Notes: generated by a model from the letters alone, not told the origin. A stretch of DNA of 64,000 nucleotides from Candidatus Eiseniibacteriota bacterium (GCA_963725865.1 CAVSAC010000010.1:736001-800000); one strand, 5' to 3'. Positions 13,473 through 32,559 are shown, counted from the first letter of the stretch. Program-made: numbers and translations.

Positions 13473-14072
13473 ATGATCGATCCGCCGGCCGGCAGCGAAC
13501 CTCTCGACTCGACCGCCACTCTGCTCACGCTCGCGCGCGGCGGCGACGGCGACGCGCGCGAACGCCTGTTCGAGCGCTTCCTGCCGGTGCTGCGCCGCTG
13601 GGCGCACCGGCGGCTGCCGCCGCGCGCGCGCGGCCTCGCCGACACCGACGATCTCGTGCAGGTCACGCTCACGCGCGCGCTCGCCCGCCTGCCCGACCTC
13701 GAGCCGCGCCAGGAGGGCAGCTTCCTCGCGTACCTGCGCCGCATCCTGCTCAACGCCGTGCGCGAGGAGATCCGACGCTCCGCGCGGCGCGGCGAGCACG
13801 GCGAGCTGGGCGAGGAGCTGGCGGACCCGCGCGCCTCGGTGGTCGACGAGGTGCTCGGCCGCGAGAAGATGCGCCGCTACGAGGCGGCGCTCGCCCGGCT
13901 CGGCGACGAGCAGCAGCAGGCGGTGATCCTGCGGCTGGAGTTCGGCTACGCACACGCCCAGATCGCCGAGGCGCTCGGCAAGCGCAGCGCCGACGCGGCG
14001 CGCATGACGGTGGTGCGCGCGCTGATGCAGATGGCACGCGCCATGGAGGAGCACGATGAGTCCGATGCCTGA
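13473..14072 (+). CDS. ECF sigma factor (module 1)
   Basis: Region 2 (DTDDLVQ...FLAYLRRILLN) and region 4 (QQQAVILR...AQIAEALG...ARMTVVRAL). Confidence 0.9.
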   Translation: MIDPPAGSEPLDSTATLLTLARGGDGDARERLFERFLPVLRRWAHRRLPPRARGLADTDDLVQVTLTRALARLPDLEPRQEGSFLAYLRRILLNAVREEIRRSARRGEHGELGEELADPRASVVDEVLGREKMRRYEAALARLGDEQQQAVILRLEFGYAHAQIAEALGKRSADAARMTVVRALMQMARAMEEHDESDA

Positions 14073-15876
14073 GCCTCCGCGCCCCGACGACCTGGAGCTG
14101 ATGCGGCTGGCCGAGTCGATCGCCGACGACACGCCGCGCCCGGTGAGCGCCGACGGCGCGAGCAGCCCGCTGCTGCGTCACCTCGAGGTGATCGCCGAGG
14201 CGGCCGCGGCGTTCCGCGGCGCCGGTCCCGAGCCGGCGGCCGGCGGGACACCCGCGCTGTTCGCGTGGGGACCGCTCGAGGTGCGGCGCGCGCTCGGCGA
14301 GGGCAGCTTCGGCACCGTGTACGCGGCCTGGGACCCGCGGCTGCAGCGCGAGGTGGCGCTCAAGCTGCGCCACGACGACGCCGGCAGCGCACGCCGCTGG
14401 CTCGACGAAGCTCGCGCGCTGGCGCGGGTGCGCCATCCCAACGTGCTGACGGTGCACGGCGCCGACGAGCACGACGGGCGCGTCGGGATGTGGACCGATC
14501 TCGTGGTGGGGCGCGACCTCGAGGCGATCCTGCAGCGGCACGGCCCGTTCTCGGCGCGCGAGGCGTCCGCGGTCGGACTCGAGCTGTGCGCGGCGCTCGC
14601 GGCGGTTCACGCGCGCGGCCTGGTGCACGGCGACGTGAAGACCCGCAATGTGATGCGCGACGAGGGTGACGACTCGCCCGGCCGCATCGTGCTGATGGAC
14701 TTCGGCTCGGCGCACGACGCCGCGCTCGCGATGACGGCGGGGCGCGACGCGTCCATCGGCACTCCGCTCGCGATGGCGCCCGAAGTGCTGCGCGGCGAGC
14801 CCGCCACGCCGGCCGCGGATCTCTATTCGCTCGGGGTGCTGCTGTTCCGGCTCGCGACCGGGCGCTATCCGATCGAGGCCGCGACGCTCGACGAGCTGCG
14901 GCAGAAGCACGCGCAGCGCGCCCGCGCCTCGCTGCGCTCGCTGCGCCCCGAGCTGCCGCGCGGCTTCGTGCGGGCGGTCGAGCAGGCGCTGGCGCCCGCG
15001 CCCCGCGAGCGGTTCGCCGATGCCGCCGCGTTCGAGCGGGCGCTGCAGGCACCGGACGCGGCGCGTGCCGCGACCGCAGCTCGGCGCCCGCTGACGCTCG
15101 CGGTCGCCGCCCTCGCGGCGCTCGCCGTCGTCGCGCTGCTGGTGGTGGCTCCGTGGCGTCCGCGCCCGCGCGGGGGTGCGGGCGCAGGAGCCGCCGCGCC
15201 TGCGGGCACGACCGCGTCCACGGCGATCCCCTCCGCTCCCACCCGCGGCTCCACCGCGTCCGCCGGCGCCGCGCTCACGGTGGCCCCGCCCGCCGGATCC
15301 CAGGTCGGACTGCAGGCCGAGGCCACGCTGTATCGCACCCGCGCCGGCGAGGTCGTGGGACTCGCCTCGGGTGGCGAGATCGAGCCGGGCGACCGCCTCC
15401 ACCTGCTGGTCGCGAGCCCCGAGGCGGTGCACGCCTACGTGCTCGACGAGGACGGCGCCGGCCACGTGGTGGTGCTGTTCCCGTGCGCGGGCGCCGAGGA
15501 GCGCAACCCGCTCGCTCCGGGGGCGTCCCATCGACTGCCGGGCGCCGGAGCGCGACGCGAGCTCAATTGGCTGGTGACGAGCGCCGAGGGCCGTGAGACC
15601 TTTCTGATCGTGATCGCGCGCCGACCGCTCGAGGACCTCGAGCACACGGTCGCGGCGCTGCCGCAGGCGGGATCCGCCGGTGGACTCCAGTACGCCGCGC
15701 TCGACGAGGACCAGCTGCGCCGCCTGCGCGGGGTCACGCGCATCACCCACGACCCGGCGCCGAACACCCCGGCGGATCCGGGCCGGCTCGCCTCGCTCGC
15801 GCGCGCCCTCGGCGCGCGCGCCGACGCGACCGACCTGTGGATCCGACTCGTCCAGGTCGAGAACCCGAAGGACTAG
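14056..15876 (+). CDS. Membrane Ser/Thr protein kinase with extracytoplasmic DUF4384-like domain
   Basis: GEGSFG, VALK, HGDVKTRN, DFG and APE motifs; TM helix; C-terminal GDRLHL..HAYVL..VVVLFP..GRETFLIV segment resembling DUF4384; overlaps sigma gene. Confidence 0.88.
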   Translation: MSPMPEPPRPDDLELMRLAESIADDTPRPVSADGASSPLLRHLEVIAEAAAAFRGAGPEPAAGGTPALFAWGPLEVRRALGEGSFGTVYAAWDPRLQREVALKLRHDDAGSARRWLDEARALARVRHPNVLTVHGADEHDGRVGMWTDLVVGRDLEAILQRHGPFSAREASAVGLELCAALAAVHARGLVHGDVKTRNVMRDEGDDSPGRIVLMDFGSAHDAALAMTAGRDASIGTPLAMAPEVLRGEPATPAADLYSLGVLLFRLATGRYPIEAATLDELRQKHAQRARASLRSLRPELPRGFVRAVEQALAPAPRERFADAAAFERALQAPDAARAATAARRPLTLAVAALAALAVVALLVVAPWRPRPRGGAGAGAAAPAGTTASTAIPSAPTRGSTASAGAALTVAPPAGSQVGLQAEATLYRTRAGEVVGLASGGEIEPGDRLHLLVASPEAVHAYVLDEDGAGHVVVLFPCAGAEERNPLAPGASHRLPGAGARRELNWLVTSAEGRETFLIVIARRPLEDLEHTVAALPQAGSAGGLQYAALDEDQLRRLRGVTRITHDPAPNTPADPGRLASLARALGARADATDLWIRLVQVENPKD

Positions 15877-15902
15877 AGAGCGCGCCTTCCGTGACCCCTC
15901 GG

Positions 15903-18900
15903 ATGCTCGGCCGACTCGTGTTCCTCGCGACGCTGCCACTGGCGGCGGCGTTGGTGGCGCTGCCGGCTGCGGCGCGCGCGCCGGATGCGCGTGCGTGGCT
16001 GGCGCTCGCGCGTATCCAATGGGACGCCGCGCGCTATCGCGACGCCGACAGCCTGACCTGGCTCGCGGTCGCCGACCTGCGGGCCCGTCCGCCGCGCTCC
16101 GAGCGCGAGCGCCTCGCGCTGACCGACGCGATCGTGCGCTGCGCGCGGCCCGCGACCGCCGCCGGCTGCGACACCGTGATGGCGTGGGCGCGCTGGGTGG
16201 CCGACCGGCACGACGCCGAGCGCACCGGGAGCGCGCGCGAGCAGGCGTGGCTGCTGGCCGGGCGTGCCTGTCAGCGCGCCAGCCACGGGGACTCGGCGGC
16301 GGCGTGCTTCGAGCGCGCGGCCGCCGCCTTGCGCGCGCGGCCGGATCACACCGCGGACGACGAGGCGCGCCTGCTCGCGCGCATCGCGAGTTACCACCTG
16401 GCGAACGGGCGCACCCGCGACATGGCCCGCTACGCGACGGCGGCGATCGAGGCATGGGACCGCGCCCCCGGCGCGGATTCGCTCACGCTCGCCTTCGCGC
16501 TGGTGTCGCGCGCCCGCATGCGCGCCGAGCGGGGCGCGGCGGACTCGGCCGGCGCCGACCTGGAGGTCGCGCAGCGGGTGCTGCTGACGCGGCTGGGACC
16601 GGATCACGGCGAGCTCGTCTCCCTGTGGCAGACCATCGCGTCGGTGCGCGCCGTGTACGACGACCCCCGGGGCTGCACCGCGGCGATGGCCGAGGCCCTG
16701 CGCATCAACGCGCTCACGCGCCCGCCCGGCGATCAGGAGTTCGGCTTCCTCTACACCCAGGCGAGCGCGTTGTGGAGCGCCTCCGGGGACTACGTGGAGG
16801 CGTGCCGCTACGGCCGGCTCGCGGTGAGCGCCTCCGAGACGCGCTTCGGGCGCGAGAGCGTGCCGGCCGCGCGCAGCCGGCTGGCGCTCGCCAACAGCCT
16901 GCGCCAGCTCGGCGACCGGGCCTCGGCGCTCGCCGAGGCGCGCGAGGCGCTCGCGATCGAAACTCGCATCCTGCCGGAGCTGAACGGAGAGCGCGCCTAC
17001 GCGCTCAGCGTGCTCGGCGCGGTCGAGCTGGATCTCGAGCAGTACGCCGAGGGCTACCAGCACTACCGCGACTCCGCGCGGATCCGCGAGGCGCTGCTGG
17101 GCCCGGAGCATCCGTCCACGCTGCACTCGCTCACCGAGCAGGGCGAGGGCGCGCTCGGGCTCGGCCGCGTCGCGGAGGCGCAGGCGCTGCTCGATCGCGT
17201 GGCCCGCGCCGAGGAGGCACAGGGCCACAGCACCACGCTGCTCGACACCTGGTGCCTGCTCGCCGAGACCCAGCTGCTCGGCGGGCGCGACTCGCTCGCG
17301 CTCGCCACCATGGACCGGGTGGTGAGCGTGGCCGACACGATGTACGGCGCCACCAGCGCGCCCGCGCGGCACCACCGCTGGAACCGGCTGCCGTTCCTGC
17401 GCCATCGGGGCCACGTCGCGCAGGCCCTCGACGAGGCCCTGGCGCTGTCGGTGCTCGAGCGCGAACAGCTCGGCTGGACCAGCATGGCGGTGCCCGAGCG
17501 CGAGGCGCTGGCGGCGGCCGAAGTGCACTCCGACGCGCTCGCCGCCGCGATCGAGCTGGCGTGCTCGCCCGGGCTGCCGGCGGACGCGGCGCGACGCGCC
17601 TGGGATGAGCTCGCGCGCTCGCGCGCGCTGGTGTTCCGCATCCAGGCCGAGCGCCGCGAGCGCCGCGGCGCGAGCGACGCCGGCGCCCGGGCCGCGTTCG
17701 CGCAGGTCGACTCCACCCGCGCCGCGCTCGCGCGCGAGGTGATGGAGCCGATCGAGGGAACGGCGGTGAAGCGGGCGGAGCGCCTCGATTCGCTGCGCCG
17801 CGCGGCGGAGGAGTCGGAGCGCGCGCTGGCGGCCCGACTGCCGGCGCACGCCGACGACGCGCGCGCTCCGGGGATCGCCGCGCTCCTCGCGACGCTGGCG
17901 CCCGACGAGCGACTCGTCGCGTTCGCGCGCTTCAAGCGACTGGAGGCCGACTCCCCGTCCGCCGTGCCGGGCGGCGAGCGCCCGCTGGCGTACGCGGCAT
18001 TCGTGGGGGATCGCGGCGGTCGCGTGGTGGCGGTGCCGCTCGGCGACGCCGCGCCGCTCGAGGCGCGGGTGGCGCGCTGGTTCGCGCTGGTCACCCGCGC
18101 CGCCCATGACTCGACCGGAGAGGCGGCGCTGGAGCGGCGCACCGCAGAGGCGGGCGAGGCGGTGCGCCGCGGCTTCTGGGATCCGCTGGCGCCTCGCCTG
18201 GCCGCCGCGCGACGCGTGGACGTGGTCCCCGAGGGCGCGGTCACCAGCGTGGACTTCGCGGCGCTGCCGGCGCGGCGGGCCACGACGCTCGCCGAGGCCG
18301 GGCCGCTGATCGTGCCGCTCGCCACCGAGCGCGACGTGCTCCCGCAGCCCCACGCGGGGCGCGGCATGCTGGTGCTCGGCGCGCCGGATTTCGACCGCGG
18401 CGGCGCGGCGGCCGAGCCGCTGGCCGCGACCGTGGAGCGCTCCGCGATCCCGGATTCGCTGCGCCTGCACTTCGGCGCGCTGCCCGAGAGCGGCGAGGAG
18501 GCGCGCGAGGCGCTGGCGGCGTTCGACGGTGCCGGAGCGGAGGGGGCGCCCCGGGAGCTGCGGCTCGGCGCGGACGCGAGCGAGGCGGCGCTGCGCCGCG
18601 AGGCGCCCGGCTGCGGACTGCTCCATGTCGCGACCCATGGATTCCTGATCGATGGCGAGCGGCTCGTCGCGCCGGCGACGGGCGAACGCGGCGTGAGCGC
18701 GATCGTCGAGTCGCCGTCCGCCCGCCGCGCGCTGGTCGGAGGCGTGGACTGGTCGGTGGCGGGCCTCGCGCTCGCGGGGGCGAACGTCGCCGGGCCGCGA
18801 TCGCCCGCGGCCGACGACGGCTACCTCACCGGCGCCGAGATCGTCACGCTCGACCTGCGCCCGGTGCGCTGCGCGGTGCTCTCGGCGTGCCGCACCGGCG

Positions 18901-19178
18901 CGGCCCGCGCCGACCGGTTCGAGAGCCTGCAGGGCCTGGAGCGCGCGTTCCGCGGCGCCGGCGTGGGCCAGGTGGTGATGAGCCTGTGGCCGGTCGACGA
19001 CGCCGACGCGCGCGCGTGGATGCGCGCGTTCTATCGCGAGCACCTCGGTCGCGGCCGCTCGGTGGCCGAGGCGGTGCGCGCCGCCGATCTCGAACGCCTG
19101 CGCGCGCTGCGGAGCCCGGGGCGCACGCCGCGCCCGGCGCGCTGGGCTCCGTTCTTCGTGCGCGGCGAGCGCGACTGA
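15903..19178 (+). CDS. Exported TPR-repeat CHAT-domain (caspase-like, clan CD) protease (module 1)
   Basis: Signal peptide, TPR-like helices (LLGPEHPST), LHVATHG (His), LSACRTG (Cys), SLWPVDD, WAPF. Confidence 0.9.
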   Translation: MLGRLVFLATLPLAAALVALPAAARAPDARAWLALARIQWDAARYRDADSLTWLAVADLRARPPRSERERLALTDAIVRCARPATAAGCDTVMAWARWVADRHDAERTGSAREQAWLLAGRACQRASHGDSAAACFERAAAALRARPDHTADDEARLLARIASYHLANGRTRDMARYATAAIEAWDRAPGADSLTLAFALVSRARMRAERGAADSAGADLEVAQRVLLTRLGPDHGELVSLWQTIASVRAVYDDPRGCTAAMAEALRINALTRPPGDQEFGFLYTQASALWSASGDYVEACRYGRLAVSASETRFGRESVPAARSRLALANSLRQLGDRASALAEAREALAIETRILPELNGERAYALSVLGAVELDLEQYAEGYQHYRDSARIREALLGPEHPSTLHSLTEQGEGALGLGRVAEAQALLDRVARAEEAQGHSTTLLDTWCLLAETQLLGGRDSLALATMDRVVSVADTMYGATSAPARHHRWNRLPFLRHRGHVAQALDEALALSVLEREQLGWTSMAVPEREALAAAEVHSDALAAAIELACSPGLPADAARRAWDELARSRALVFRIQAERRERRGASDAGARAAFAQVDSTRAALAREVMEPIEGTAVKRAERLDSLRRAAEESERALAARLPAHADDARAPGIAALLATLAPDERLVAFARFKRLEADSPSAVPGGERPLAYAAFVGDRGGRVVAVPLGDAAPLEARVARWFALVTRAAHDSTGEAALERRTAEAGEAVRRGFWDPLAPRLAAARRVDVVPEGAVTSVDFAALPARRATTLAEAGPLIVPLATERDVLPQPHAGRGMLVLGAPDFDRGGAAAEPLAATVERSAIPDSLRLHFGALPESGEEAREALAAFDGAGAEGAPRELRLGADASEAALRREAPGCGLLHVATHGFLIDGERLVAPATGERGVSAIVESPSARRALVGGVDWSVAGLALAGANVAGPRSPAADDGYLTGAEIVTLDLRPVRCAVLSACRTGAARADRFESLQGLERAFRGAGVGQVVMSLWPVDDADARAWMRAFYREHLGRGRSVAEAVRAADLERLRALRSPGRTPRPARWAPFFVRGERD

Positions 19179-22645: not shown

Positions 22646-22810
22646 CGCTCAGCCCTCCGAACTCACCGTCACGGCGTCAGCGCTCCGCACAGGTCATCGG
22701 GCCGGCGCGCGTAGCGGCGGCTTCCTCGAGGGATCCCTGCCCGGGAGTGTAGGCCCGTCCGGTGCACGAGGCCAGCCTCCTCGCCAGCATCCCGCGGCTG
22801 GCGAGTGGTA

Positions 22811-23090
22811 TCAGCGCAGCCAGACGAACCGGCGCGCGACCGTGCCTGCCGGCGAGCCGCGGCGCGCGAAGTAGACCCCCGCGCCGACCGGACGGCCGGC
22901 CGCGTCGGTGCCGTGCTCACCCACGCCGAAGGCACCTCGCGCCAACGTGCGCACCCGGCGCCCGTCCGCGTCGAAGCGCTCCAGAGCGATCGTGCCGGCG
23001 CGCGACTGCGAACAGACCAACTCGACCGCGCCGCGCGCCGGGGTGGGCGCGACCGGCCTGAGCGGCGAAGCCCTTTCGTCGCGCCGCGCC
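22811..23090 (-). pseudogene. Orphan degenerate FlgD-Ig/T9SS-like CTD fragment
   Basis: VAPTPARG..FDADGRRVRTL..DAAGRPVGAGVYFARR..RRFVWLR; lacks the WDG motif, own start and signal peptide; followed by a 9-bp hairpin at 22780-22805. Confidence 0.5.
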
Positions 23091-23093
23091 CGG

Positions 23094-24818
23094 CTACCTC
23101 CCTCCCGCCGCGCTCGCGCCCAGCGTCTTCTTGCGCGCGGCCTCGAACTCGTCGCCCGGGTACCACGCCGGCAGCTTCGAGCCGTTGGCGACCTCCAGCC
23201 CGACGAGATAGGCGAGCCGGGAGTCCTCGACCATCCCGCTGAAGTCCCAGTCCGGGCGCAGCTCGTCACTCGGCTGGTGGTAATGGTGCCGGCGGTAGTC
23301 CGCCTCGCGTTCCTTGCCCCAGCCGTCGGGGCGGCCGATGAAGGTCTGGCCGGACTTGAAGTAGAGCCCGGGCACCCCCACCCGCGCGAAGCTCAGTTGG
23401 TCGGAGCGGTAGTAGTAGCCCTTGTCGGGCTCCGGCTCGTCCACCACCACGCGCTGCTGGTTGCGCGCGGCGACCACCAGGCGGTCCTCGAGGTCGGACT
23501 TGCCCTTGCCGATCACGGCGACGTCCGAGGTGCGGCCGAAGATGTTCCCGCCGTCGATGTTCAGGTCCGCCGCGATGCGCGCAAGCGGGATCGTGGGATG
23601 CGCGGCGTAGTATTGCGAGCCGAGCAGCCCTTGCTCCTCGCCGGCGACGAACAGCGCGACGATGCTGCGCTGCGGGCGCGGCGTGGTCGCCGCGAACGCC
23701 TCGGCGATCGCCAGCACCTGCGCGCAGCCCGAGGCGTTGTCGAGCGCGCCGTTGTGGATGCGATCCCCTGTCGAATCGGGCGCGCCGACGCCGAGGTGAT
23801 CGTGGTGCGCGGAGAAGATCATCGCCTGATCGCGCAGCAGCGGATCGCTGCCGGGCAGCACGCCGACCACGTTCGCGGTCGGCGTCTTCTCCACCGCGAC
23901 GTCGAACGCCAGCGACGTCCGCACGCCCAGCGACATCGGGCGAAACGTCGGCCGCCGCGCGGCCATCCGCAACACGTCGAGATCCTTGCCGCCCAGCCGG
24001 CACATGCGGCGGGCCGCGTCCTCGGTCATCCACGCGCGGAACTTCAGCCGCGGCTCGCCGCCGGCGGGCAGCTCGAACTGCGTGCCGGACCAGGAGCGCT
24101 GCACCACGCTCCACGGATAACCCGCGGACTCCTCGGTGTGCACGACGATGGCGGCCACCGCGCCGTGCCGCGCGGCGGATTCGTACTTGTAGTCCCAGCG
24201 GCCGTAGTAGAGGCGCTTCACGCCCGCGAACAGTTTCGGATCCCAGTCGGGGTCGTTGTTCAGCATGAGCACGACCTTGCCGGTCACGTCCACGCCCTTG
24301 AAGTCGTCCCACTGGTACTCGGGCGCCTGGATGCCGTAGCCCACGAACACCACTTCGGCGTCGCCGAACGCGACCCGGGGTTCCTGCACGCCGCTGCCGC
24401 CGATGAAGTCGTCGCTCCAGCGGAACGCCGTGGTGCCGCCGTAGCCCGCGAAGCTCCACGCGTCGAGGTGCTGCACCGTCAGCCCGACGAACTCGATCGG
24501 CTGCTCGTAGCTCCCGTTCGCGCCGCCGGGCTGGTAGCCGAGCGCCTGCAGCCGGCGGATCAGGTAGCCGCGCGCCATGCGGTCCCCCGGAGAGCCGGGG
24601 CTGCGGCCTTCGGTCGAGTCCGCCGAGAGCGCGGCGATGTCGCCGCGCAGGCCGTCGGCGGTGATGCGCGCCTCCGCCGCCGCGACGCTCGCCGCCGGTG
24701 CGGCGGTCGCCGCGGCGGCAGCGGGCCGCGAAAGGGCCGGGCCGACAGCGAGGGTGACGACGGCGACGGCGATGATGGAAGCGATGGGCAGCGGGGCCGG
24801 GCGCAGCGCGGATGGCAT
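23094..24818 (-). CDS. M28 family aminopeptidase with PA domain, exported
   Basis: AGGAGG RBS, signal peptide; AHHDHLG, GALDNASG, GEEQGLLGS, RSDQ, HYHQPSD. Confidence 0.92.
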   Translation of the reverse strand: MPSALRPAPLPIASIIAVAVVTLAVGPALSRPAAAAATAAPAASVAAAEARITADGLRGDIAALSADSTEGRSPGSPGDRMARGYLIRRLQALGYQPGGANGSYEQPIEFVGLTVQHLDAWSFAGYGGTTAFRWSDDFIGGSGVQEPRVAFGDAEVVFVGYGIQAPEYQWDDFKGVDVTGKVVLMLNNDPDWDPKLFAGVKRLYYGRWDYKYESAARHGAVAAIVVHTEESAGYPWSVVQRSWSGTQFELPAGGEPRLKFRAWMTEDAARRMCRLGGKDLDVLRMAARRPTFRPMSLGVRTSLAFDVAVEKTPTANVVGVLPGSDPLLRDQAMIFSAHHDHLGVGAPDSTGDRIHNGALDNASGCAQVLAIAEAFAATTPRPQRSIVALFVAGEEQGLLGSQYYAAHPTIPLARIAADLNIDGGNIFGRTSDVAVIGKGKSDLEDRLVVAARNQQRVVVDEPEPDKGYYYRSDQLSFARVGVPGLYFKSGQTFIGRPDGWGKEREADYRRHHYHQPSDELRPDWDFSGMVEDSRLAYLVGLEVANGSKLPAWYPGDEFEAARKKTLGASAAGGR

Positions 24819-24941
24819 GAGACCTCCTGAGGTCGCGAGCGGATGCCATCCACGCCGAGCCATCGTGCTCTGCGGGCCCGGGCGCTTTGCGGGCCCGGTG
24901 GGGCATCGCGGGGGACTCTACATCAGTCCCCCGCGCTCTCT

Positions 24942-25502
24942 CTACGGCCCGCCCGCCGCTCCGATCATGACGGCGAACGCCCCCTGGGTCACCGTGACGT
25001 TGTAAGTCCCGGTGCTCCCGAACACGTACAGCGCGAACACGCCGTCGTCGCCGAGCTCATCTTCGAGTGCGGACTTGCCACCGGAGGTGAACAACCCGGC
25101 CGAATTGTCCCAGCTGAGCGTCTTGGTCTCGTTGGCCGCGAGCGCGACCGACCAGACCCTGACCCCGCCCGCGCCGGTGACCGCGGCCAGGTTCGGCAGC
25201 AGGGCGGCACTCGCCGGCGCCGCGAGCAGGTACACGTCCGCGCTGACCGGGGTCGCGAGGTTGTTCTTGAACGTCCCGAGGACCGCCACGTCCTCGATGG
25301 TCTTGAAGTCGCTCCTGTGGTCGCGGTAGGTGCCGTTCTCCGCGGGCAGGTTGACGTACTTGCCGGCCGATGCGGCGCCGTTGACCGCCGACAGGTTGCC
25401 CAGGTTGACGGTGACCAGCTTGACGACCTGCAGGCAGCCGCCCGTCCACAGGGCGGCGGCCGCCAGGCTCGCCAGGATCGTGAACGTCCGATGGGGTCGC
25501 AT
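24942..25502 (-). CDS. Hypothetical beta-rich lipoprotein
   Basis: ATG 25502 with GAGGAG RBS; lipobox-like ...AALWTGG-C; follows OMP gene after an 11-nt gap. Confidence 0.75.
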   Translation of the reverse strand: MRPHRTFTILASLAAAALWTGGCLQVVKLVTVNLGNLSAVNGAASAGKYVNLPAENGTYRDHRSDFKTIEDVAVLGTFKNNLATPVSADVYLLAAPASAALLPNLAAVTGAGGVRVWSVALAANETKTLSWDNSAGLFTSGGKSALEDELGDDGVFALYVFGSTGTYNVTVTQGAFAVMIGAAGGP

Positions 25503-25513
25503 GGAGCTCCTCC

Positions 25514-26059
25514 TCACTTCGCCGCGAAGGTGGTGAGCGAATAGGACACGCCCGCGGTGACGTTCGCGAACAGGCGTCCCGAGCCGCCCTCGGTGAGCGA
25601 CTGGGCCGCGCCGCGCAGATGCACCATGAACTTGGGCGCCGGCGCGAATCCGAATCCGAGCCCCCCGCCGAAGCCGGTCATGGTCTGGTCCGCCGAACCG
25701 TCCCGTGTCAGCTTGTTCGTCCCGATCGTGGCGAAGGGATAGAACTGGAACCGCGAGCCCAGCGTGAGCAGCGCGCTCATGCCGAAGCTGCTGATGCCGA
25801 ATCCGCTCCGGGTATAATCGAGCCCGGCGATGGTCGTTTGGACGTCCCCGTCGCTGGTCGCGGCGAAGTAGGGCTCGAGAGTGACGAGGCGGTGGATCGC
25901 GACGGGCACCCGCACGCCGAACGTGGAACCCTGGCCGTTGTCGTCCTGGACGATGGGAATGTCGACGCCGCCGAACGCGCCGATGCCGACGGTTCCGGCG
26001 GTGGCCGGGCCGGCCGCGACTCCCAGTGCGAGCACAGCGGTGGTGAGCAGCCGCTTCAT
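25514..26059 (-). CDS. Small outer-membrane beta-barrel protein (OmpA/OMP_b-brl-like)
   Basis: Signal peptide; alternating strands (FGVRV, FYPFATIG, GFGGGLGFGF, NVTAGVSYSL). Confidence 0.8.
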   Translation of the reverse strand: MKRLLTTAVLALGVAAGPATAGTVGIGAFGGVDIPIVQDDNGQGSTFGVRVPVAIHRLVTLEPYFAATSDGDVQTTIAGLDYTRSGFGISSFGMSALLTLGSRFQFYPFATIGTNKLTRDGSADQTMTGFGGGLGFGFAPAPKFMVHLRGAAQSLTEGGSGRLFANVTAGVSYSLTTFAAK

Positions 26060-26127
26060 GACGCGATCCCTCCGGTGATGGAACGGCCTCCCCCGGGTAC
26101 GAGCTGAGAAGGGGGCCTGGATGACAC

Positions 26128-26160
26128 GTCCACAGAGGCAGGCTCGGCTGGGAAATCACA
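26128..26160 (-). promoter_or_regulatory. Putative ECF promoter TGTGAT-N15-GCCTC-TGTGGAC upstream of OMP-lipoprotein operon
   Basis: Same elements and same 15-nt spacing as the motif at 29178-29210. Confidence 0.6.
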
Positions 26161-26197
26161 CGGCATCGGTCGGCGGCAGGTCCGCCCGGGGCGCATC

Positions 26198-29182
26198 GTG
26201 AGGCGCTCGCGGCCTCCGGGGGTCGGCGGCGAGCGCGCGCGCGGTGCCGCGGGGCGCCCGCCCGTCCGCTCGCGCCACGCCGCCGCCCGTGCCGCCTGCA
26301 GCCGCGGTGCGATCGCGCTGCTGCTGCTGGCGACCTTCGCGGCGCTGAGCCGGACGCCCGCCCGTGCGCTCACGCCGCTCGACCCGCGCGCGGCGACGGT
26401 GTTGCGCGACGTGGACTCGCTGGTGAGAGCGTGGCGGCTGGACACCGCGCTGGTGCTGCTCGATCCGCAGCTCACCCGGGCCCGCGCGCGCGGCGATCGC
26501 GAGCTCGTGATGCAGGTGCAGCTGCGGCGCGCCGCCTGCCTGGGCCTCACCGACCGCGCCGCACAGTCGGAGGCGGCCGCGCGGCCGGCGATCGCGCTGG
26601 CGGAGGCGCTCGGCGACTCCGCCGTGCTGCGCGACGCGGTGCGGTGGCTGGCGTTCTCGTGGCTCACGCGCGGACAACTCGACGAATCGCTGCGCGAGTA
26701 CCGCCGCCTGCTCGCGCTCTCGGTGCCCGCGGGGGACGCGCGCAACGAGGGCTACGCGCGCACTGCGCTGGCGTATCGCGACCTCATGGAGGGCCGCCTG
26801 CTCGCCGCCCGCGAAGGCTACCGGCGCGCTGTCGCCTGCATGGAGCGCGCGCGGGATCCGCGCGCGATGCTGACGCCGCTCGTCGGTCGGGCGCGCACCG
26901 AGTGCGGGCTCGGGGAATACGAGCTCGGCCGCCGCACATACCAGTCCATCGTGGCCCTGGCGCGGCGGCTCGATGCCCGGCGTCACGAGGCCGACGCGCT
27001 CAACAATCTCGGCACCCTCGAATACGACGTCGGCGACCCGGCCGCGGCGGTGCGACTGTGGAATCGGGCCGTCGCGATATACCGCGACCTCGGCGCCGCC
27101 GAGCCGATGCAGAGCTCCGCCAGCAACGCGGCCCTCGGCGAGGCCGACCTGGGGCACTACGACGAGGCCGCGCGACAGCTGGAGGCGCTGCTGGCGTTCG
27201 CCGTCGAGCGCGACTTCAGGCGGGACCAGATCCAGGCGTTGCTCCACCTCGCCGGCGTCCGCGACGCGCAGGGGCGGCACGAGGAGAGCATCCGGCTATT
27301 GCGGCGGTGCCTCGCGATCATGGGCGACCGGGAGCCGGGGTATCGGGTCGAGGCGATGCTGGGGATCGCCGACGCGCTGGCGGGCGAGGGCCGTCCGTCG
27401 GAGGCGCTCGCGGTGCTGGAGCGCGAAGCGCACCCGCTGGTCCCGCGGCTGAGCGCGGACCTGCGCGTGCGGCTGGAGCTGCGCGTCGCGCACCTGCTGC
27501 GCGCGACCGGGCGGACGGCCCGCGCGTACGCGGCGTTCGAGCACGCCGCCGAGTCCGCGACGGCGCTCGGGCTGGGCCCGCTCGAGCTCGACGCGCTCAC
27601 CGGGGCCGGCCGCTGCGACGCGGAGTCCGGCCACCCCGATCGTGCGCGCGCCACGCTGGCACGGGCGCTGGTGCTGTGGGAGAGCCAGCGTCGCGTGCCG
27701 AGCGATCCGGAATGGCGCGAACATCGCGGCGAGCTGGCCGAGGAGTTGTGCTTCGCGTTCGCGCGCGCGCTGCTCGACCCGGCGCGCGGGGTACCGCGGG
27801 CGCAGGCGGTGGCCGACGCCTACGACGTGATGCAGCGCTTCAAGGCGCGCACGCTGCTCGAACGCATGACCGGACCGGCGGGCTCGCTGCCGCGCGCCCG
27901 CGAGCCGGTCACGCTGAGCGAGCTGCAGCGGCAGGTGCTCGGCGAAGGCGACCTGCTGCTCGACGCGTTCGTCGGCCGCCAGCAGGGCTGGCTGTTCGCG
28001 ATCACGCCCCGCGAGGTGCGGCTGACCTGGCTGCCGGGCGGCGACTCGCTCGCGGCGCAGATCCAGCTCTACCGCGAGCTGGTGGCGACCCCGCCCCCGG
28101 CGGTGCGCGACCCCGGGCTCGAGGCGGTGCGTCATCGCGCCGCCCGACGCCTCGGGCAGGAGCTGCTCGGCGGGGTGGCCGACCTGGTGACGCGCTGCCG
28201 CCGCGTGATCCTGGCGCCCGATGGACCGCTGAACGCGATTCCGCTCGGCGAGCTGCCGCTGGCCGCGGACGGCGACGACGCGCCCCTGCTCACGCGCCGC
28301 GCGGTGGTGCGCATCCCGTCAGCGACGCTGCTCGCCGAGCTGCGGCGCCGGCCGCCCGCCGTCGCCGAGCGCGGGCTGCTCGCGCTCGGCGGCGCGATCG
28401 ACGCGAGCGGCCGTCCGCTGCCCGGCACCGCGGACGAAGTGCGCGAGCTCCGGCGCGACTTCCGCGGCGTGGACGCTCGCATCGCGGGCGACCCCGCCGC
28501 GGTGCCGCTGCGCGCGGCCGAGCTGTCGCGCTACCAGGTGCTGCACGTGGCGGCACACACCTGGGTCGACGACCAGCGCCCATGGAACTCGGGCCTGCTG
28601 CTCGGGAGCCGCTGGGCCGCGCCGCTGATCGCCGCTGCGGGCGCGCCCGCGGGCGCCCCGGCGGCCGGATCGGCCGCTGGCGCCGACCGCGAGGCGGCGG
28701 GCGCGCCGTGGCTGCGGGCCGCCGCGATCGCTTCGATGCGGCTGCCGGCGCGGCTGGCGCTGCTGTCGGGGTGCGAATCGGGAGGCGGGCGCATCGCCTG
28801 GGGCGAGGGCGTGCAGGGGCTCGGCGCGGCGTTCCAGAGCGCGGGCGTGCCGGCGGTGGTGGTGACGCTGTGGCCGGTCGACGATCGCATCTCGGCCGCG
28901 CTGGTGCGGACCTTCTACTCGCGACTCGCCGACGGCGAGACCGCGGCCGACGCGCTGCGCCATGCTCAGCTCGATCTCGCCCGGCGGCCCGCGACGGCGC
29001 ATCCATTCTTCTGGGCCGGCTACGTCTTGATCGGCGACGGCGAGGTGCGGGTGCCGCTCCACCGCCGATTCCCGGTGCCGCTCGTCCTCGCGTTCGCGGC
29101 AGCCGCGCTGGGACTGATTGTCGTATGGTCGTGGTCGACTCGGTCCGTCCGGCGTGCCGCGCGCCCGGGACCGCCGGTGTGA
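26198..29182 (+). CDS. TPR-CHAT protease with N-terminal signal/TM and C-terminal TM anchor (module 2)
   Basis: TPR repeats (ALNNLG), PDGPL..IP, LHVAAH (His), LSGCES (Cys), LWPVDD, HPFFWAGY; C-terminal hydrophobic helix. Exact start uncertain. Confidence 0.9.
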   Translation: MRRSRPPGVGGERARGAAGRPPVRSRHAAARAACSRGAIALLLLATFAALSRTPARALTPLDPRAATVLRDVDSLVRAWRLDTALVLLDPQLTRARARGDRELVMQVQLRRAACLGLTDRAAQSEAAARPAIALAEALGDSAVLRDAVRWLAFSWLTRGQLDESLREYRRLLALSVPAGDARNEGYARTALAYRDLMEGRLLAAREGYRRAVACMERARDPRAMLTPLVGRARTECGLGEYELGRRTYQSIVALARRLDARRHEADALNNLGTLEYDVGDPAAAVRLWNRAVAIYRDLGAAEPMQSSASNAALGEADLGHYDEAARQLEALLAFAVERDFRRDQIQALLHLAGVRDAQGRHEESIRLLRRCLAIMGDREPGYRVEAMLGIADALAGEGRPSEALAVLEREAHPLVPRLSADLRVRLELRVAHLLRATGRTARAYAAFEHAAESATALGLGPLELDALTGAGRCDAESGHPDRARATLARALVLWESQRRVPSDPEWREHRGELAEELCFAFARALLDPARGVPRAQAVADAYDVMQRFKARTLLERMTGPAGSLPRAREPVTLSELQRQVLGEGDLLLDAFVGRQQGWLFAITPREVRLTWLPGGDSLAAQIQLYRELVATPPPAVRDPGLEAVRHRAARRLGQELLGGVADLVTRCRRVILAPDGPLNAIPLGELPLAADGDDAPLLTRRAVVRIPSATLLAELRRRPPAVAERGLLALGGAIDASGRPLPGTADEVRELRRDFRGVDARIAGDPAAVPLRAAELSRYQVLHVAAHTWVDDQRPWNSGLLLGSRWAAPLIAAAGAPAGAPAAGSAAGADREAAGAPWLRAAAIASMRLPARLALLSGCESGGGRIAWGEGVQGLGAAFQSAGVPAVVVTLWPVDDRISAALVRTFYSRLADGETAADALRHAQLDLARRPATAHPFFWAGYVLIGDGEVRVPLHRRFPVPLVLAFAAAALGLIVVWSWSTRSVRRAARPGPPV

Positions 29183-29210
29183 TTCCCGCCTGCTGGGAGC
29201 CTCCGTGCAC
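29178..29210 (+). promoter_or_regulatory. Putative autoregulatory ECF promoter TGTGAT-N15-GCCTC-CGTGCAC, leaderless onto the sigma ATG
   Basis: Lies immediately before ATG 29211 with no well-placed RBS; matches the motif at 26128-26160. Confidence 0.62.
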
Positions 29211-29801
29211 ATGGAATCGGACGACTCGACGATCCCCGACGAGCAGCTGGCCCGGCGGGCCCGGCAGGACCCGCACGGACCGGCCGGTCGGCGGGCCGCC
29301 TCGCAGCTGCTGGAGCGCTACGGGGGACGGGTGTACGGATGGTGCCGGCGCTACGTCCGCGACCACGAGCGGGCGCTGGATCTCTCGCAGGACGTGCTGA
29401 TGCTCGCGTACCGGGGGCTGGCGGGATTCGAGGGTCGCGCGCCGTTCTCGGCGTGGCTGTTCGTCATCGCGCGACGCCAGTGCATTCGCGCGCTGGCTCC
29501 GCGGGTGCTGATGCGCGACGAGGGCGCCGTGGTGGACCGCCTGCTGGATCCCGGCGCGGGCCCCGACGATCAGCTCGAGGAGTCGCAGCGGCGCGAGGGC
29601 CTGCTGCGGCTGATCCACGAGACGCTGACCCCGCGCGAGCAGGACGCGCTGTGGCTGCGTTACGTGGAGAACGCGTCGGTCGAGGACATCACGCGCACGC
29701 TCGAGGTGTCCTCGGTCTCGGGCGCGCGCGGACTACTCCAGACCGCGCGGCGCAAGCTGCGCGCCGCGGTGGCGGCCCGCGGCGAACGGGGTGCGACGTG
29801 A
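29211..29801 (+). CDS. ECF sigma factor (module 2)
   Basis: ALDLSQDV...FEGRAPFSAWLFVIARR (region 2); LTPREQ...ARRKLR (region 4). Confidence 0.9.
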   Translation: MESDDSTIPDEQLARRARQDPHGPAGRRAASQLLERYGGRVYGWCRRYVRDHERALDLSQDVLMLAYRGLAGFEGRAPFSAWLFVIARRQCIRALAPRVLMRDEGAVVDRLLDPGAGPDDQLEESQRREGLLRLIHETLTPREQDALWLRYVENASVEDITRTLEVSSVSGARGLLQTARRKLRAAVAARGERGAT

Positions 29802-30502
29802 GCGAGCGCCACCTGAGCCTGATCGAGATCGCGAGCGCCGCGAGCTGGGCGCCGGACGATCCGCGCCGCCTCCATCTCGAGGCCTGCGCGCGCTGCCGGA
29901 TCGTGCACCGGCGCCACCAGCAGTTCGTGACGCCACCCACCCACGTGCCGGAAGCCGAGCTGCGCGACGCCGAGGCGCGGCTGCGGGCGTTCGTGGCCGG
30001 AGCGGTCGAAGACGCCGGCGCCGGCGCGCCCGCGCGGCCCCTCCCATCGCCGCTGCCGCTGCCGCGACCGGAGCGCCGCGCGTCCGCGTGGCGCGTGCCC
30101 GTCGCATTCGCGGCGGCCGCGGCGGTGCTGGTGGTGGCGGGCGCGTTGCTGTGGCCGGAGCTCGCGATCCGCGACGAGCGCGCGAGCGGCCGGCTGCGCG
30201 GAGGAACGCGCGGGCCGGCGACCGTCGCGCCGGTGCGCCGGGCGCCGCGCACGCTCGCCGACGGCGGCGTCGCGCTGGGCTGGAGCCGCGTCCCCGGCGC
30301 GGACGGCTACACCGTGCGACTCTTCACGCCCGAGCTGCGCGCGCTCGAGTCGCGCGAGGCGGCGCGCGAGACGGTGCTGGTGCTGGCTGCCGGCTCGATC
30401 GCGGGGGCGGGGCCCGGCGACACGCTGCTGTGGCGCGTCGAGGCGCGGCGCGGCGCGCAGCGCATCGCGCAGTCCGACCTCGGCACGCTGCGCGCGCCGT
30501 GA
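29798..30502 (+). CDS. Zinc-binding (HxxxCxxC) transmembrane anti-sigma factor with extracytoplasmic Ig/FN3-like domain
   Basis: GTGA overlap with sigma; HLEACARC; TM VPVAFAAAAAVLVVAGALLW; W..VPGADGY...WRVEA domain. Confidence 0.8.
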   Translation: MSERHLSLIEIASAASWAPDDPRRLHLEACARCRIVHRRHQQFVTPPTHVPEAELRDAEARLRAFVAGAVEDAGAGAPARPLPSPLPLPRPERRASAWRVPVAFAAAAAVLVVAGALLWPELAIRDERASGRLRGGTRGPATVAPVRRAPRTLADGGVALGWSRVPGADGYTVRLFTPELRALESREAARETVLVLAAGSIAGAGPGDTLLWRVEARRGAQRIAQSDLGTLRAP

Positions 30503-30554
30503 GGACGCGCGGTGCGCGGACGTCCACGCCGCGCGCCGGCTCGCACTTCCGGGA

Positions 30555-30583
30555 TTGAATCGCCGCGCCGCGTTCTCTACGCT
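30555..30583 (+). promoter_or_regulatory. Sigma70-type promoter TTGAAT-N17-TACGCT, (near-)leaderless spmAB transcript
   Basis: Canonical spacing; ATG 9 nt after -10 element; no RBS. Confidence 0.55.
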
Positions 30584-30592
30584 GCGGTTGGC

Positions 30593-31822
30593 ATGCTCAA
30601 CTGGATCTGGGCGGCGTTCTTCCTGATCGCCTTCGTCGTCGCGCTGGTGCAGGCACTGGCGTTCGGACGCCCCGACGTGCTTCGCGACGTCGTGGGCGCG
30701 CTGTTCGATTCCTCCAAGACCGGCTTCGAGATCGCGATCGGCCTGACCGGCGTGATGAGCCTGTGGCTCGGGCTCATGAAGATCGGCGAGAAGGCCGGTG
30801 TGATCGAGACCATCGCGCGCCTGGTGCGCCCGGTGTTCCGCCGCCTGTTCCCCGGCATCCCCGACGGCCATCCGGCGGCCGGCGCGATGGTGATGAACCT
30901 CTCCGCCAACGCGCTCGGACTCGACAACGCCGCCACGCCGCTCGGGCTCAAGGCCATGAAGGAGCTCGAGACGCTCAATCGCGAGCCCGGGCGCGCCACC
31001 GACGAGATGATCCTGTTCATGGTGATCAACGCCTCGTCGGTGACGATCCTGCCGATGACCATCTTCACGTTCCGCGCCCAGCTCGGCGCGCACGACCCCA
31101 CCGACGTGTTCGTGCCGATCCTGATCGCGACCTACGGCAGCCAGATGACCGGACTGCTCACGACCGCCGCGGTGCAGCGGATCCGGCTGTGGGACCCGGT
31201 CGTGATCGGATGGCTCGCGCTGCTCACGGCGACCGTCGGCGGCATGGTCGCGTACTTCATGCGGCTCTCGCACGACCAGGTGGCGGTGCAGTCGGGGCTG
31301 CTCGCGAACGGCCTGCTGCTCGCGGTGATCACGTTGTTCCTGGCCGCCGGCGCGCGCCGCAGGCTGCCGCTCTACGAGACCTTCATCGAGGGCGCCAAGG
31401 AGGGCTTCCAGGTCGCGGTCAGCATCATCCCGTTCCTGATCGCCATCCTGGTGGCGGTCGGCGCGCTGCGCGCGAGCGGCGCGCTCGACGCCGCGCTGGG
31501 CGCGATCCGCGCCGGCGTGGGCTCGCTGGGGCTGGACGCGCGGTGGGTGGACGCGATGCCGGTGGCGCTCATCAAGCCGCTGTCCGGCGGCGGCGCGCGC
31601 GGCCTGATGGTGGAGACCATGAAGACGCTCGGGCCCGACTCCTTCCCGGGGCGCCTCGCGTGCATCATCCAGGGCAGCACCGAGACCACGTTCTACGTGC
31701 TCGCGGTCTACTTCGGCTCGGTCGGCATCAAGCGCATCCGCCACGCGCTGCCCTGCGCGCTCGCCGCCGAGGCGGCCGGGGTGATCGGCGCGATCTTCGT
31801 CGCCTACCTGTTCTTCGGCTGA
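30593..31822 (+). CDS. SpmA/SpmB fusion (nucleoside-recognition Gate-domain membrane protein)
   Basis: MLNWIW start, ANALGLDNAATPLGLKAM, GSTETTFYVLAVYFGSVGI. Confidence 0.9.
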   Translation: MLNWIWAAFFLIAFVVALVQALAFGRPDVLRDVVGALFDSSKTGFEIAIGLTGVMSLWLGLMKIGEKAGVIETIARLVRPVFRRLFPGIPDGHPAAGAMVMNLSANALGLDNAATPLGLKAMKELETLNREPGRATDEMILFMVINASSVTILPMTIFTFRAQLGAHDPTDVFVPILIATYGSQMTGLLTTAAVQRIRLWDPVVIGWLALLTATVGGMVAYFMRLSHDQVAVQSGLLANGLLLAVITLFLAAGARRRLPLYETFIEGAKEGFQVAVSIIPFLIAILVAVGALRASGALDAALGAIRAGVGSLGLDARWVDAMPVALIKPLSGGGARGLMVETMKTLGPDSFPGRLACIIQGSTETTFYVLAVYFGSVGIKRIRHALPCALAAEAAGVIGAIFVAYLFFG

Positions 31823-31911
31823 GCGTCCGCGGCGCAACCGCTCGCCGGCCCGCGCATCCAATGGGCGCGGCCGCGAAACCCCACCCGGACGGACCCCCAG
31901 GAGATTCGGTG

Positions 31912-32559
31912 ATGGCAGGACGGAAGGTCGGTGTGCTCGGCTCGGGAGCGGTCGGCGAGACGCTCGCGAACGGCTTCCTGAAGTACGGCGACGAGGTGAT
32001 GCGCGGCAGCCGCGACCCCGCGAAGCTCGAGGGCTGGCGGTCCACTGCCGGCCCGCGCGCTTCGGTCGGCACCTTCGAGGCCGCGGCGCGCCACGGCGAG
32101 GTGGTGGTGCTCGCGCTCAAGGGCACCGCCGCGGAGTCGGTGGTGAAGTCGGTCGCGGGCGCGCTGGCCGGCAAGGTGGTGATCGACACCACGAATCCGA
32201 TCGCGGAATCACCCCCGCAGGACGGCGTGATCCGCTACTTCACCGACATCAACGAGTCGCTGATGGAACGCCTGCAGGCGCTGGCGCCGCAGGCGCGCTT
32301 CGTGAAGGCGTTCTCGTGCGTGGGGAACGCGCTGATGGTCGATCCCGCGCTGCCGTCGAAGCCCACCATGTTCATGTGCGGCAACGACGCGGCCGCCCGG
32401 GCCACGGTGCAGGAGATCCTGACGCGCTTCGGCTGGGAATGGGACGACTGCGGGACCGCGGTCGCCGCGCGCGCGATCGAGCCGCTGGCGATGTTGTGGT
32501 GCATCCCGGGCTTCCTGCGCAACGACTGGGTGCACGCGTTTCGTCTGCTGCGGCCTTAG
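31912..32559 (+). CDS. NADP oxidoreductase, F420-dependent (NpdG-like) family
   Basis: GSGAVG Rossmann motif, GSRDP, GKVVIDTTNP, VKAF, ARAIEP. Confidence 0.85.
   Translation: MAGRKVGVLGSGAVGETLANGFLKYGDEVMRGSRDPAKLEGWRSTAGPRASVGTFEAAARHGEVVVLALKGTAAESVVKSVAGALAGKVVIDTTNPIAESPPQDGVIRYFTDINESLMERLQALAPQARFVKAFSCVGNALMVDPALPSKPTMFMCGNDAAARATVQEILTRFGWEWDDCGTAVAARAIEPLAMLWCIPGFLRNDWVHAFRLLRP

Follow-up and report, generated by a model that had tools for sequence, protein, structure and literature searches.

A putative split counterpart of DdvS/DdvA in a Candidatus Eiseniibacteriota genome: a TPR-CHAT protein, an ECF sigma factor and a membrane anti-sigma factor

A locus at positions 24942–30502 of a 64 000-nt stretch of DNA (the window) from Candidatus Eiseniibacteriota bacterium (GCA_963725865.1 CAVSAC010000010.1:736001-800000) encodes a tetratricopeptide repeat (TPR)-CHAT protein, a sigma factor of the extracytoplasmic function (ECF) type and an anti-sigma factor, together with a divergent operon for a small outer-membrane protein (OMP) and a lipoprotein. 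As read from its sequence, the locus is a split variant of the DdvS/DdvA type known from Myxococcus xanthus and not itself a member of that type. We tentatively favour, at a little less than an even chance, the reading that the three proteins form an envelope switch, a split form of DdvS/DdvA in which the CHAT protein would act as the site-1 protease on the linker of the anti-sigma. The considerations in favour of this are the set of parts and their predicted topology, the retained catalytic His and Cys, the linkage of the trio, an invariant Arg in the anti-sigma linker, a pair of shared promoters, the presence of an M50 protease and the precedent of DdvA. The concept of a CHAT site-1 protease is not unprecedented, and what is new here is the split arrangement, the fibronectin type III (FN3) ectodomain and the linker motif.

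Because the window has a G+C content of ~73 %, raw lists of open reading frames (ORFs) were crowded with spurious frames. Genes were chosen using third-position G+C and a codon log-odds caller trained on the host genome (G000; 5.23 Mb). The five parts named in an initial annotation of this DNA (CHAT, ECF sigma, anti-sigma, OMP and lipoprotein) are all present at or near where it had placed them, and only start points had to be moved, the lipoprotein gene starting at 25502 and the sigma gene most likely at ATG 29211.

The three proteins and their predicted topology

The TPR-CHAT protein (994 aa; 26198–29182, plus strand) matches the Pfam CHAT family (PF12770) at residues 647–947 with an E value of 4.5e-53, covering profile positions 2–289 of 289, and also matches TPR families. 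GTG 26198 is the sole start codon in its open frame. At the N-terminus, an Arg-rich stretch is followed by a hydrophobic segment that could serve as signal or anchor (residues 32–50) and an Ala-x-Ala site; the TPR array occupies residues ~110–500, and the last 45 residues include a transmembrane (TM) segment at 958–976 and then a basic tail. Under the positive-inside rule, basic flanks stay on the cytoplasmic side. Because the protein combines an Arg-rich N-terminus and hydrophobic segment with a C-terminal TM segment and basic tail, we predict that its body of ~900 residues lies in the periplasm, with a tether to the inner membrane next to the CHAT domain. Forty-one proteins of this CHAT subfamily from the host genome and its relatives were compared. 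The C-terminal TM segment and Arg-rich tail are found in 30 of the 41 and the N-terminal hydrophobic segment in 28, and several of the relatives without the latter are probably start-codon miscalls.

Residues H783, H787 and C859 are invariant in the 16 aligned CHAT relatives (16/16), and in the wider set H783 is present in 41/41, H787 in 39/41 and C859 in 40/41, the single C859 gap being a truncation at a contig end. Both sequences in which H787 is replaced (L053 and L057) come from loci with no detected sigma or anti-sigma gene. The initial annotation had described a membrane-anchored, exported TPR-CHAT with an intact His/Cys dyad and had proposed topology prediction as a check; the TM and signal segments and the conservation among the 41 proteins agree with that description, and the CHAT domain is predicted to be extracytoplasmic rather than cytoplasmic. 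An Ala/Gly/Pro-rich low-complexity insert at CHAT residues ~805–835 (window 28610–28700), between the catalytic His and Cys regions, is skipped in alignments to most relatives; the tally of these alignments, like the cassette and phylum-wide anti-sigma tallies given below, draws partly on an unpublished genome (G026). A single-sequence search of the PDB with the CHAT protein returned matches to TPR proteins only and did not reach DdvA. The profile of the CHAT subfamily matches the CHAT domain of DdvA (8rot_B, residues 823–971, E 4.2e-11), which is the only CHAT structure among its best 60 PDB matches.

The sigma gene (29211–29801, plus strand; 196 aa from ATG 29211, with an alternative start at GTG 29205) begins 29 nt 3′ of the CHAT stop codon. 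Its product matches Sigma70_r2 (E 6.9e-16) and Sigma70_r4_2 (E 1.9e-5) in Pfam and TIGR02937 with 78.7 bits against a cut-off of 42.9 (E 3.6e-22). It consists of regions sigma-2 and sigma-4 only, as expected of an ECF (group IV) sigma factor, and the closest relatives with solved structures are likewise ECF sigmas, SigH and SigE among them.

The anti-sigma gene (29798–30502, plus strand; 234 aa) starts with a GTG that overlaps the sigma stop codon TGA (GTGA), so that the two are translationally coupled. The protein carries the zinc motif H26-x3-C30-x2-C33 (H26LEAC30ARC33) and a single TM segment predicted from sequence at residues 100–118. It has the features of a class I zinc-binding anti-sigma (ZAS), namely a helical N-terminal domain, the HxxxCxxC motif and then a TM segment, and 25 of 35 relatives retain the motif. 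An ECF sigma followed by a translationally coupled HxxxCxxC TM anti-sigma was what the initial annotation had read here, and the Pfam and TIGR02937 matches, the GTGA overlap, the motif and the TM segment bear this out. The anti-sigma had no match to a Pfam family (zf-HC2 gave none at E ≤0.01), a single-sequence PDB search gave no match, and a word-based homologue search found three proteins only. An AlphaFold2 model computed from an alignment of 20 sequences reached a mean predicted local distance difference test score (pLDDT) of 82.3, with a helical N-terminal domain at residues 1–74 (pLDDT 85–97), a TM helix at 102–129, a linker modelled with low confidence at 129–138 (pLDDT <50) and a confident beta-sandwich at 146–234. 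When the beta-sandwich was used in a Foldseek search, 76 matches had E ≤0.001 (top 3.7e-5) and the best were almost all FN3 domains; on this model the ectodomain (146–234) is a periplasmic FN3 domain.

The linker contains an Arg, R134, that is invariant in 20/20 and 35/35 aligned sequences and in 147/147 full-length representatives sharing <50 % mutual identity. The preceding residue is L, M or V in 141 of the 147 and the following residue is G in 126, and the flanks are hypervariable. In the protein studied here, L133-R134-G135 falls in the predicted disordered linker, approximately 15 residues outside the membrane. Since a short invariant motif lies in a disordered juxtamembrane segment, it may be a protease or docking site, and we regard the hydrophobic-Arg-Gly motif as a candidate cleavage site. 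Clan-CD enzymes such as separase and the metacaspases cleave after Arg. The anti-sigma family comprises 720 representative clusters at E ≤1e-30, and counts at looser thresholds are inflated by generic FN3 repeats.

Linkage of the trio, shared promoters and candidate output genes

The host genome contains 19 CHAT loci and 36 ECF genes above the cut-off, and at 15 of the 19 CHAT loci an ECF gene is found no more than 5 kb away. In five, including the locus described here, the order is CHAT, ECF sigma and an anti-sigma of ~230 aa; two have ECF then CHAT with a divergent zf-HC2 anti-sigma; four, one of them at window 13473–19178, have ECF, a Ser/Thr kinase (Pkinase plus DUF4384) and then CHAT; two have ECF, anti-sigma and CHAT; and two are looser arrangements. 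Around CHAT relatives in 14 related genomes, the full trio in the order CHAT, ECF and anti-sigma was found at 10 of 18 loci. Of the remainder, one is at a contig end, one has CHAT and anti-sigma with no detected sigma, and six lack both. Approached from the anti-sigma, CHAT adjoins in 18 of 20 loci around the best match in 20 genomes of the class's other families. All three genes were called in 15 of those 18, either as CHAT, ECF, anti-sigma or as ECF, anti-sigma, CHAT; one of the two misses is a contig end and the other, L167, has no CHAT neighbour. The neighbourhood comparison proposed in the initial annotation therefore came out in favour of a trio that is conserved beyond the genus. The anti-sigma family was found in 91 of 206 genomes of the phylum sample. 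Near CHAT proteins of other phyla, an ECF gene was detected in 3/80 loci, where the lineage-specific hidden Markov model may miss divergent sigmas.

Some arrangements in the host genome depart from the trio. Six of its eight listed anti-sigma family genes adjoin CHAT, the exceptions being a pair on C9 and a fused form on C14. The latter (G000:C14:1230044-1233496, minus strand; 1150 aa) directly follows an ECF gene, matches the anti-sigma family at model positions 5–192 only and beyond these extends into a long region where CHAT gives no match, making it a differently fused long anti-sigma. The two ECF-CHAT loci with a divergent zf-HC2 anti-sigma also carry a protein with a type IX secretion system (T9SS) tail and a downstream ankyrin-repeat gene. 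The kinase-containing module within the window, a second CHAT module 7 kb upstream of the locus (13473–19178, plus strand), consists of an ECF sigma (13473–14072), a kinase (14056–15876) and a TPR-CHAT gene (15903–19178). The kinase is a Ser/Thr kinase with one TM segment and DUF4384 and matches PADLOC kinase families such as PD-T4-6, and the TPR-CHAT protein is 1091 aa long with a signal peptide.

The sigma gene and the divergent output operon are preceded by sites, on the minus strand at 26161 to 26128 and on the plus strand at 29177–29210, that have GTGTGATT-N15-CCTCYGTGSAC in common with identical spacing. The site of the OMP-lipoprotein operon is made up of the −35 box GTGTGATT, a 15-nt spacer and the −10 region CCTCTGTGGAC, and that of the sigma/anti-sigma operon is GTGTGATT-N15-CCTCCGTGCAC. 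ECF-type promoters have a GGAAC-like −35 and a CGTC-like −10 element. A strict two-box pattern, TGTGATT-N15-CCTCYGTG, has two matches on both strands of the whole 5.23 Mb genome, both at this locus; allowing up to three substitutions gave 17 matches, and all of the others carry at least two. The pattern was derived from these same two sites, and independent support comes from the orthologous locus in a genome of the same genus (G001; CHAT 63 % identical), where the sigma gene is preceded by TGTGATT-N15-CCTCCGT. The intergenic region upstream of the G001 CHAT gene contains TGTGATT-N15-CCTCTGTGGA, a block that stands conserved where the spacer has otherwise diverged. That the divergent operon has the promoter motif of the sigma gene, as the initial annotation had it, is thus upheld by the same boxes, the same spacing and the two strict genome matches.

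On the sigma side, the end of the motif is 1 nt, and that of the −10 box 7 nt, ahead of ATG 29211; the −35 box contains the stop codon of CHAT. The sigma/anti-sigma operon is probably self-regulated and, because a transcript from this promoter would start at or next to the sigma start codon, its mRNA probably leaderless. The OMP-side promoter lies 69 nt 5′ of the OMP gene, with a predicted start near 26128 and a 5′ untranslated region of ~69 nt. Inspection by eye of 17 trio sigma genes found in 16 a TGTGAY or CTGACG box followed, 14–18 nt on, by a CTCC, CGTTC or CGTC box ending 1–8 nt before the start codon. A stricter, automated regular expression picked up the −35 box for 16 of 30 relatives' sigma genes; among the 14 that it missed, seven show GTGAT or GTGAC variants by eye. 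Sigma operons of this kind, leaderless and self-regulated, may be general in this lineage. The CHAT genes have no such motif upstream on their own strand, where a de novo search for bipartite motifs gave GC-rich noise only, and a scan of 22800–32000 for sigma-70 and terminator consensus sequences found nothing. On this point the initial annotation is amended: the sigma/anti-sigma pair has its own promoter overlapping the CHAT stop codon, and CHAT is without the motif. A weaker promoter-like site, GTGTGATTT, 14–15 nt and CGTCT (TGTGATTT...CGTCT), is located ~1 kb before the window (G000:C10:735014-735044, minus strand; L169). It stands 65 nt 5′ of a gene for a 1197-aa protein without a Pfam family, and this sigma or a sister sigma might act there as well.

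The output operon begins with the OMP gene (25514–26059, minus strand), which has a Shine-Dalgarno-like GGAGGGA 8 nt before its ATG and encodes a small beta-barrel of 181 aa that starts with a signal peptide; its match to Pfam OMP_b-brl has an E value of 3.2e-7 and scores 31.1 bits, the cut-off being 28.7. The second gene, called from its ORF and codon bias (24942–25502, minus strand), encodes a lipoprotein of 186 aa with a signal peptide followed by Cys (MRPHRTFTILASLAAAALWTGGC...); it had no Pfam or NCBIfam match, and its neighbours in the atlas are uncharacterised lipoprotein clusters. An OMP-lipoprotein cassette is present in 32 of 41 related genomes, with the OMP gene followed by the lipoprotein gene in eight of nine inspected loci, and the host genome has three copies. 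Because elsewhere this conserved cassette sits away from trios, the copy in the window looks like an extra one recruited under the promoter of the sigma. A gene of ~228 aa in the same orientation lies upstream of the cassette in five loci (L140, L144, L146, L147 and L148), and a B3_4 domain was found by Pfam in both of those tested.

At other trios the promoter faces other genes. In G001 the same promoter faces a gene whose product, an SBBP beta-propeller protein of 554 aa, carries a T9SS sorting domain; the possibility that this divergent gene is the orthologue of the M28 peptidase gene in the window was ruled out by comparison, the proteins being unrelated. A second copy of the locus's own sigma promoter precedes a 218-aa gene divergent from CHAT in L046, a gene for a 656-aa FlgD_ig-tailed protein in L051 (one mismatch), and the downstream gene for a 677-aa FG-GAP protein at the C12 trio of the host genome. 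Since promoter copies precede different neighbours at each trio, the outputs, as judged from these sites, are local, are envelope or secreted proteins and differ between lineages. The expectation that output genes can be read from sequence is supported here, in G001 and in the L046, L051 and C12 trios, and the OMP-lipoprotein operon as predicted output holds for this genome, where it has the promoter copy, and is not conserved, as G001 has the T9SS-tailed beta-propeller gene in its place. Trios L045, L051, L052, L055 and L058 and those on C19 and C12 of the host genome repeatedly have as neighbours large secreted proteins (FG-GAP, reprolysin, papain-like and DUF11) whose C-termini are of the FlgD_ig or Por_Secre_tail type, a raw observation made without comparison to the genome background, in which T9SS cargo genes are common.

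The surroundings of the locus comprise, on its downstream side, a gene for a Gate-domain membrane protein (30593–31822, plus strand) and, upstream on the minus strand, genes for an M28 peptidase and a T9SS-tailed beta-propeller protein. Further away, three tandem 69-nt units (window 6805–7011; 71–77 % identical to the reference copy) lie within a called gene (5916–7310, plus strand) with a weak coding score.

Comparison with known systems

The closest precedent is the DdvS/DdvA pair of M. xanthus, for which we rely on part of the published account (PMC11506125). DdvA there combines a ZAS domain, a TM segment, a flexible linker and a periplasmic TPR-CHAT region within a single polypeptide. Its CHAT domain has been put forward as the enzyme that cleaves the linker in trans ahead of RseP, the bulky TPR-CHAT region sterically blocks RseP, and the ectodomain is dimeric and arrow-shaped, with an active site that is incomplete and lacks three helices. 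DdvS/DdvA controls a defence island comprising a cyclic oligonucleotide-based antiphage signalling system (CBASS) and CRISPR-Cas, and protects against phage. According to its authors, DdvA is the only characterised anti-sigma of its kind, and fused relatives occur only in Myxococcota and one Comamonas (PMC11506125), whereas the anti-sigma of the split family described here forms ~720 clusters. The locus shares with DdvS/DdvA the adjacent ECF sigma, an HxxxCxxC anti-sigma domain (ASD) with a single TM segment, a large TPR-CHAT region with a His/Cys dyad that here is predicted to be periplasmic, a flexible juxtamembrane linker as the proposed cleavage site and a putative RseP-type second step. 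It differs in that the anti-sigma (ASD-TM-FN3) and the CHAT protein, which has no ASD, are encoded by two genes and are not fused, in the FN3 ectodomain that the anti-sigma has of its own and the signal peptide and C-terminal anchor that the CHAT protein has of its own, and in its predicted output, which is the OMP-lipoprotein operon and not a CBASS/CRISPR island.

In Escherichia coli, regulated intramembrane proteolysis by RseA, DegS and RseP controls sigma-E. That cascade is outlined in the part of PMC10028731 used here. As in the RseA system, the anti-sigma is a single-pass protein with a cytoplasmic sigma-binding domain, the sigma operon appears to be positively autoregulated, and an M50 gene is present, the host genome encoding an RseP-like protease (PF02163 at C10:200071-201303, E 1.1e-55). 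In contrast to RseA/DegS, the role of site-1 enzyme would fall to a caspase-like CHAT protein of clan CD with TPRs rather than to a PDZ serine protease, and the ectodomain is FN3. The initial annotation had cited RseA/DegS, a comparison that we retain, and type III CRISPR-associated systems such as Csx29/Csx30; the nearest precedent is not Craspase but DdvS/DdvA, in which site-1 cleavage by a fused TPR-CHAT had already been proposed (PMC11506125, in part).

In Craspase, Cas7-11/Csx29, a TPR-CHAT protein, cleaves Csx30 and releases CASP-sigma (PMC10028731, in part), and a SAVED-CHAT/PCaspase cascade has also been described (bioRxiv 10.1101/2023.06.23.546230, in part). These systems likewise tie a CHAT protease to an ECF-like sigma and an inhibitor, with cleavage in a flexible loop and sigma motifs in their own locus. 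They are, however, cytoplasmic, activated by RNA or cyclic oligoadenylate and CRISPR-associated, and their inhibitors are unrelated, whereas sensing here is predicted to be periplasmic. No CRISPR array was found in the window, and PADLOC gave no significant defence family for the trio or its outputs, only weak TPR/BovA matches (E ~5e-4), in line with the earlier description of the system as CRISPR-independent.

A bioinformatic link between an ECF sigma and TPR-CHAT proteins has been published for ECF54 of the Actinobacteria, whose conserved neighbours are TPR-CHAT, subtilase and carboxypeptidase-regulatory-like genes and for which proteolytic control was proposed (Casas-Pastor 2021, PMC7826278; review PMC8999054; both in part). 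Unlike the system examined here, which has a canonical anti-sigma, ECF54 is described in the portions of PMC7826278 used as confined to Actinobacteria, without an anti-sigma and with other neighbours. The parts of the literature covered yielded no description of a split periplasmic CHAT/anti-sigma system, and other CHAT-neighbouring ECF groups may be in the Casas-Pastor supplement.

Proposed switch and alternative explanations

At rest, the zinc-type anti-sigma, by analogy with its family, would hold the ECF sigma at the inner membrane, with its linker and FN3 domain, as modelled, exposed to the periplasm. The exported TPR-CHAT protein, on the topology predicted from its sequence and family conservation, would be tethered to the same membrane by its C-terminal helix, placing the active site beside the anti-sigma linker. 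The periplasmic signal would probably be a protein to which the TPR array binds. On activation, CHAT would cut the linker at the hydrophobic-Arg-Gly motif, after which an RseP-type site-2 protease would remove the stub and free the sigma. The freed sigma would then transcribe its own leaderless operon and the divergent OMP-lipoprotein operon, both of which have the promoter. As CHAT lacks the promoter motif of the sigma, it would be expressed independently of the sigma, and this would suit a position as upstream sensor rather than output.

Several points weigh against this scheme. The two promoters are identical at 21 of 34 positions over the whole 34-mer, a value reached by 183 of 20 000 Markov shuffles of the intergenic region, and because this identity is modest the promoter evidence lies in the boxes and their spacing and not in the spacer. 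We presume the boxes to be of ECF type by likening them to the consensus, with GTGAY corresponding to GGAAC and CCTC or CGTC serving as the −10 element, and the transcript starts and the leaderless reading are deduced from spacing alone. Nor is CHAT obligatory for this anti-sigma family, to judge from the gene neighbourhoods, since two of the eight family genes in the host genome and L167 have no CHAT neighbour. In the part of PMC11506125 used here, the protease activity of DdvA is not demonstrated. Finally, an Arg specificity of CHAT would be by analogy with separase and the metacaspases, and Craspase, as far as the part of PMC10028731 used here describes it, does not cut after Arg, its site being around M427.

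Some of the same observations could equally be explained if the CHAT protein were a sensor or co-regulator. By contacting the FN3 domain or the Arg motif, it would shield the anti-sigma from, or expose it to, another periplasmic protease of the DegS, Prc or CtpA type, and its own catalysis would have the signal protein or itself as target. The linkage of the trio (10/18 and 18/20 loci) fits this just as well, protein binding is what TPR arrays and FN3 domains typically do, and those anti-sigma family genes that have no CHAT neighbour imply that some other protease can act on their products. Against it, nearly all members retain the catalytic His and Cys, arguing for protease activity; the invariant Arg is in a predicted disordered linker and not on a folded surface; and the C-terminal anchor puts CHAT at the membrane surface beside that linker. 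Even with the steric block of RseP by the TPR-CHAT region of DdvA and the unproven protease activity of that protein (PMC11506125, in part) counted on its side, we consider a sensor or co-regulator role unlikely.

A role in the processing or quality control of the sigma-controlled envelope proteins (OMP, lipoprotein and T9SS cargo), in which the link to the sigma would reflect shared physiology and CHAT would not act on the anti-sigma, appears improbable. The trio stays the same whereas its neighbours change between loci, and CHAT, being without the promoter of the sigma, would not be co-induced with its supposed substrates. Trios do often stand beside large secreted T9SS-type C-terminal-domain genes or OMP genes, and the promoter-bearing neighbours all encode envelope or secreted proteins, but T9SS cargo genes are common in the host genome anyway. 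We attach still less probability to the trio being an anti-phage sensor, as DdvS/DdvA may be, with the TPR-CHAT detecting a phage protein and the output remodelling the surface, a proposal whose internal mechanism may be the same as that of the site-1 protease switch. It draws on the only studied relative, which controls a defence island and protects against phage (PMC11506125, in part), and on the many rapidly diversifying paralogues per genome and lineage-specific outputs, which resemble conflict systems. Set against these are the lack of PADLOC matches beyond the weak TPR/BovA ones (E ~5e-4), a window without a CRISPR array, and neighbours of the trio (M28 peptidase, Gate transporter and PPK2) that have no hallmarks of mobile elements or defence islands.

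The envelope switch with a CHAT site-1 protease thus remains our preferred reading. A stricter version of it, in which CHAT is a true site-1 protease that cuts after the invariant Arg and each paralogous trio is a private sensor channel, its TPR array recognising a periplasmic protein of its own and its sigma switching on a surface or secreted protein of its own, is possible, though we hold it to be doubtful. In DdvA, the protease and its presumed substrate are one polypeptide and cleavage was not seen (PMC11506125, in part), whereas here they are separate proteins. The locus offers a candidate cleavage motif drawn from 147 diverged relatives, a defined promoter, an adjacent readout gene and about a dozen sister modules for specificity swaps, and with the enzyme and substrate separate the site-1 hypothesis can be put to a direct test in a heterologous host. 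The locus also defines an anti-sigma family of considerable size, so far uncharacterised, with an ASD-TM-linker-FN3 architecture. If the stricter version holds, the DdvA hypothesis would gain a two-protein system with separable enzyme and substrate, and caspase-like proteases would be widespread, previously unproven triggers of regulated intramembrane proteolysis.

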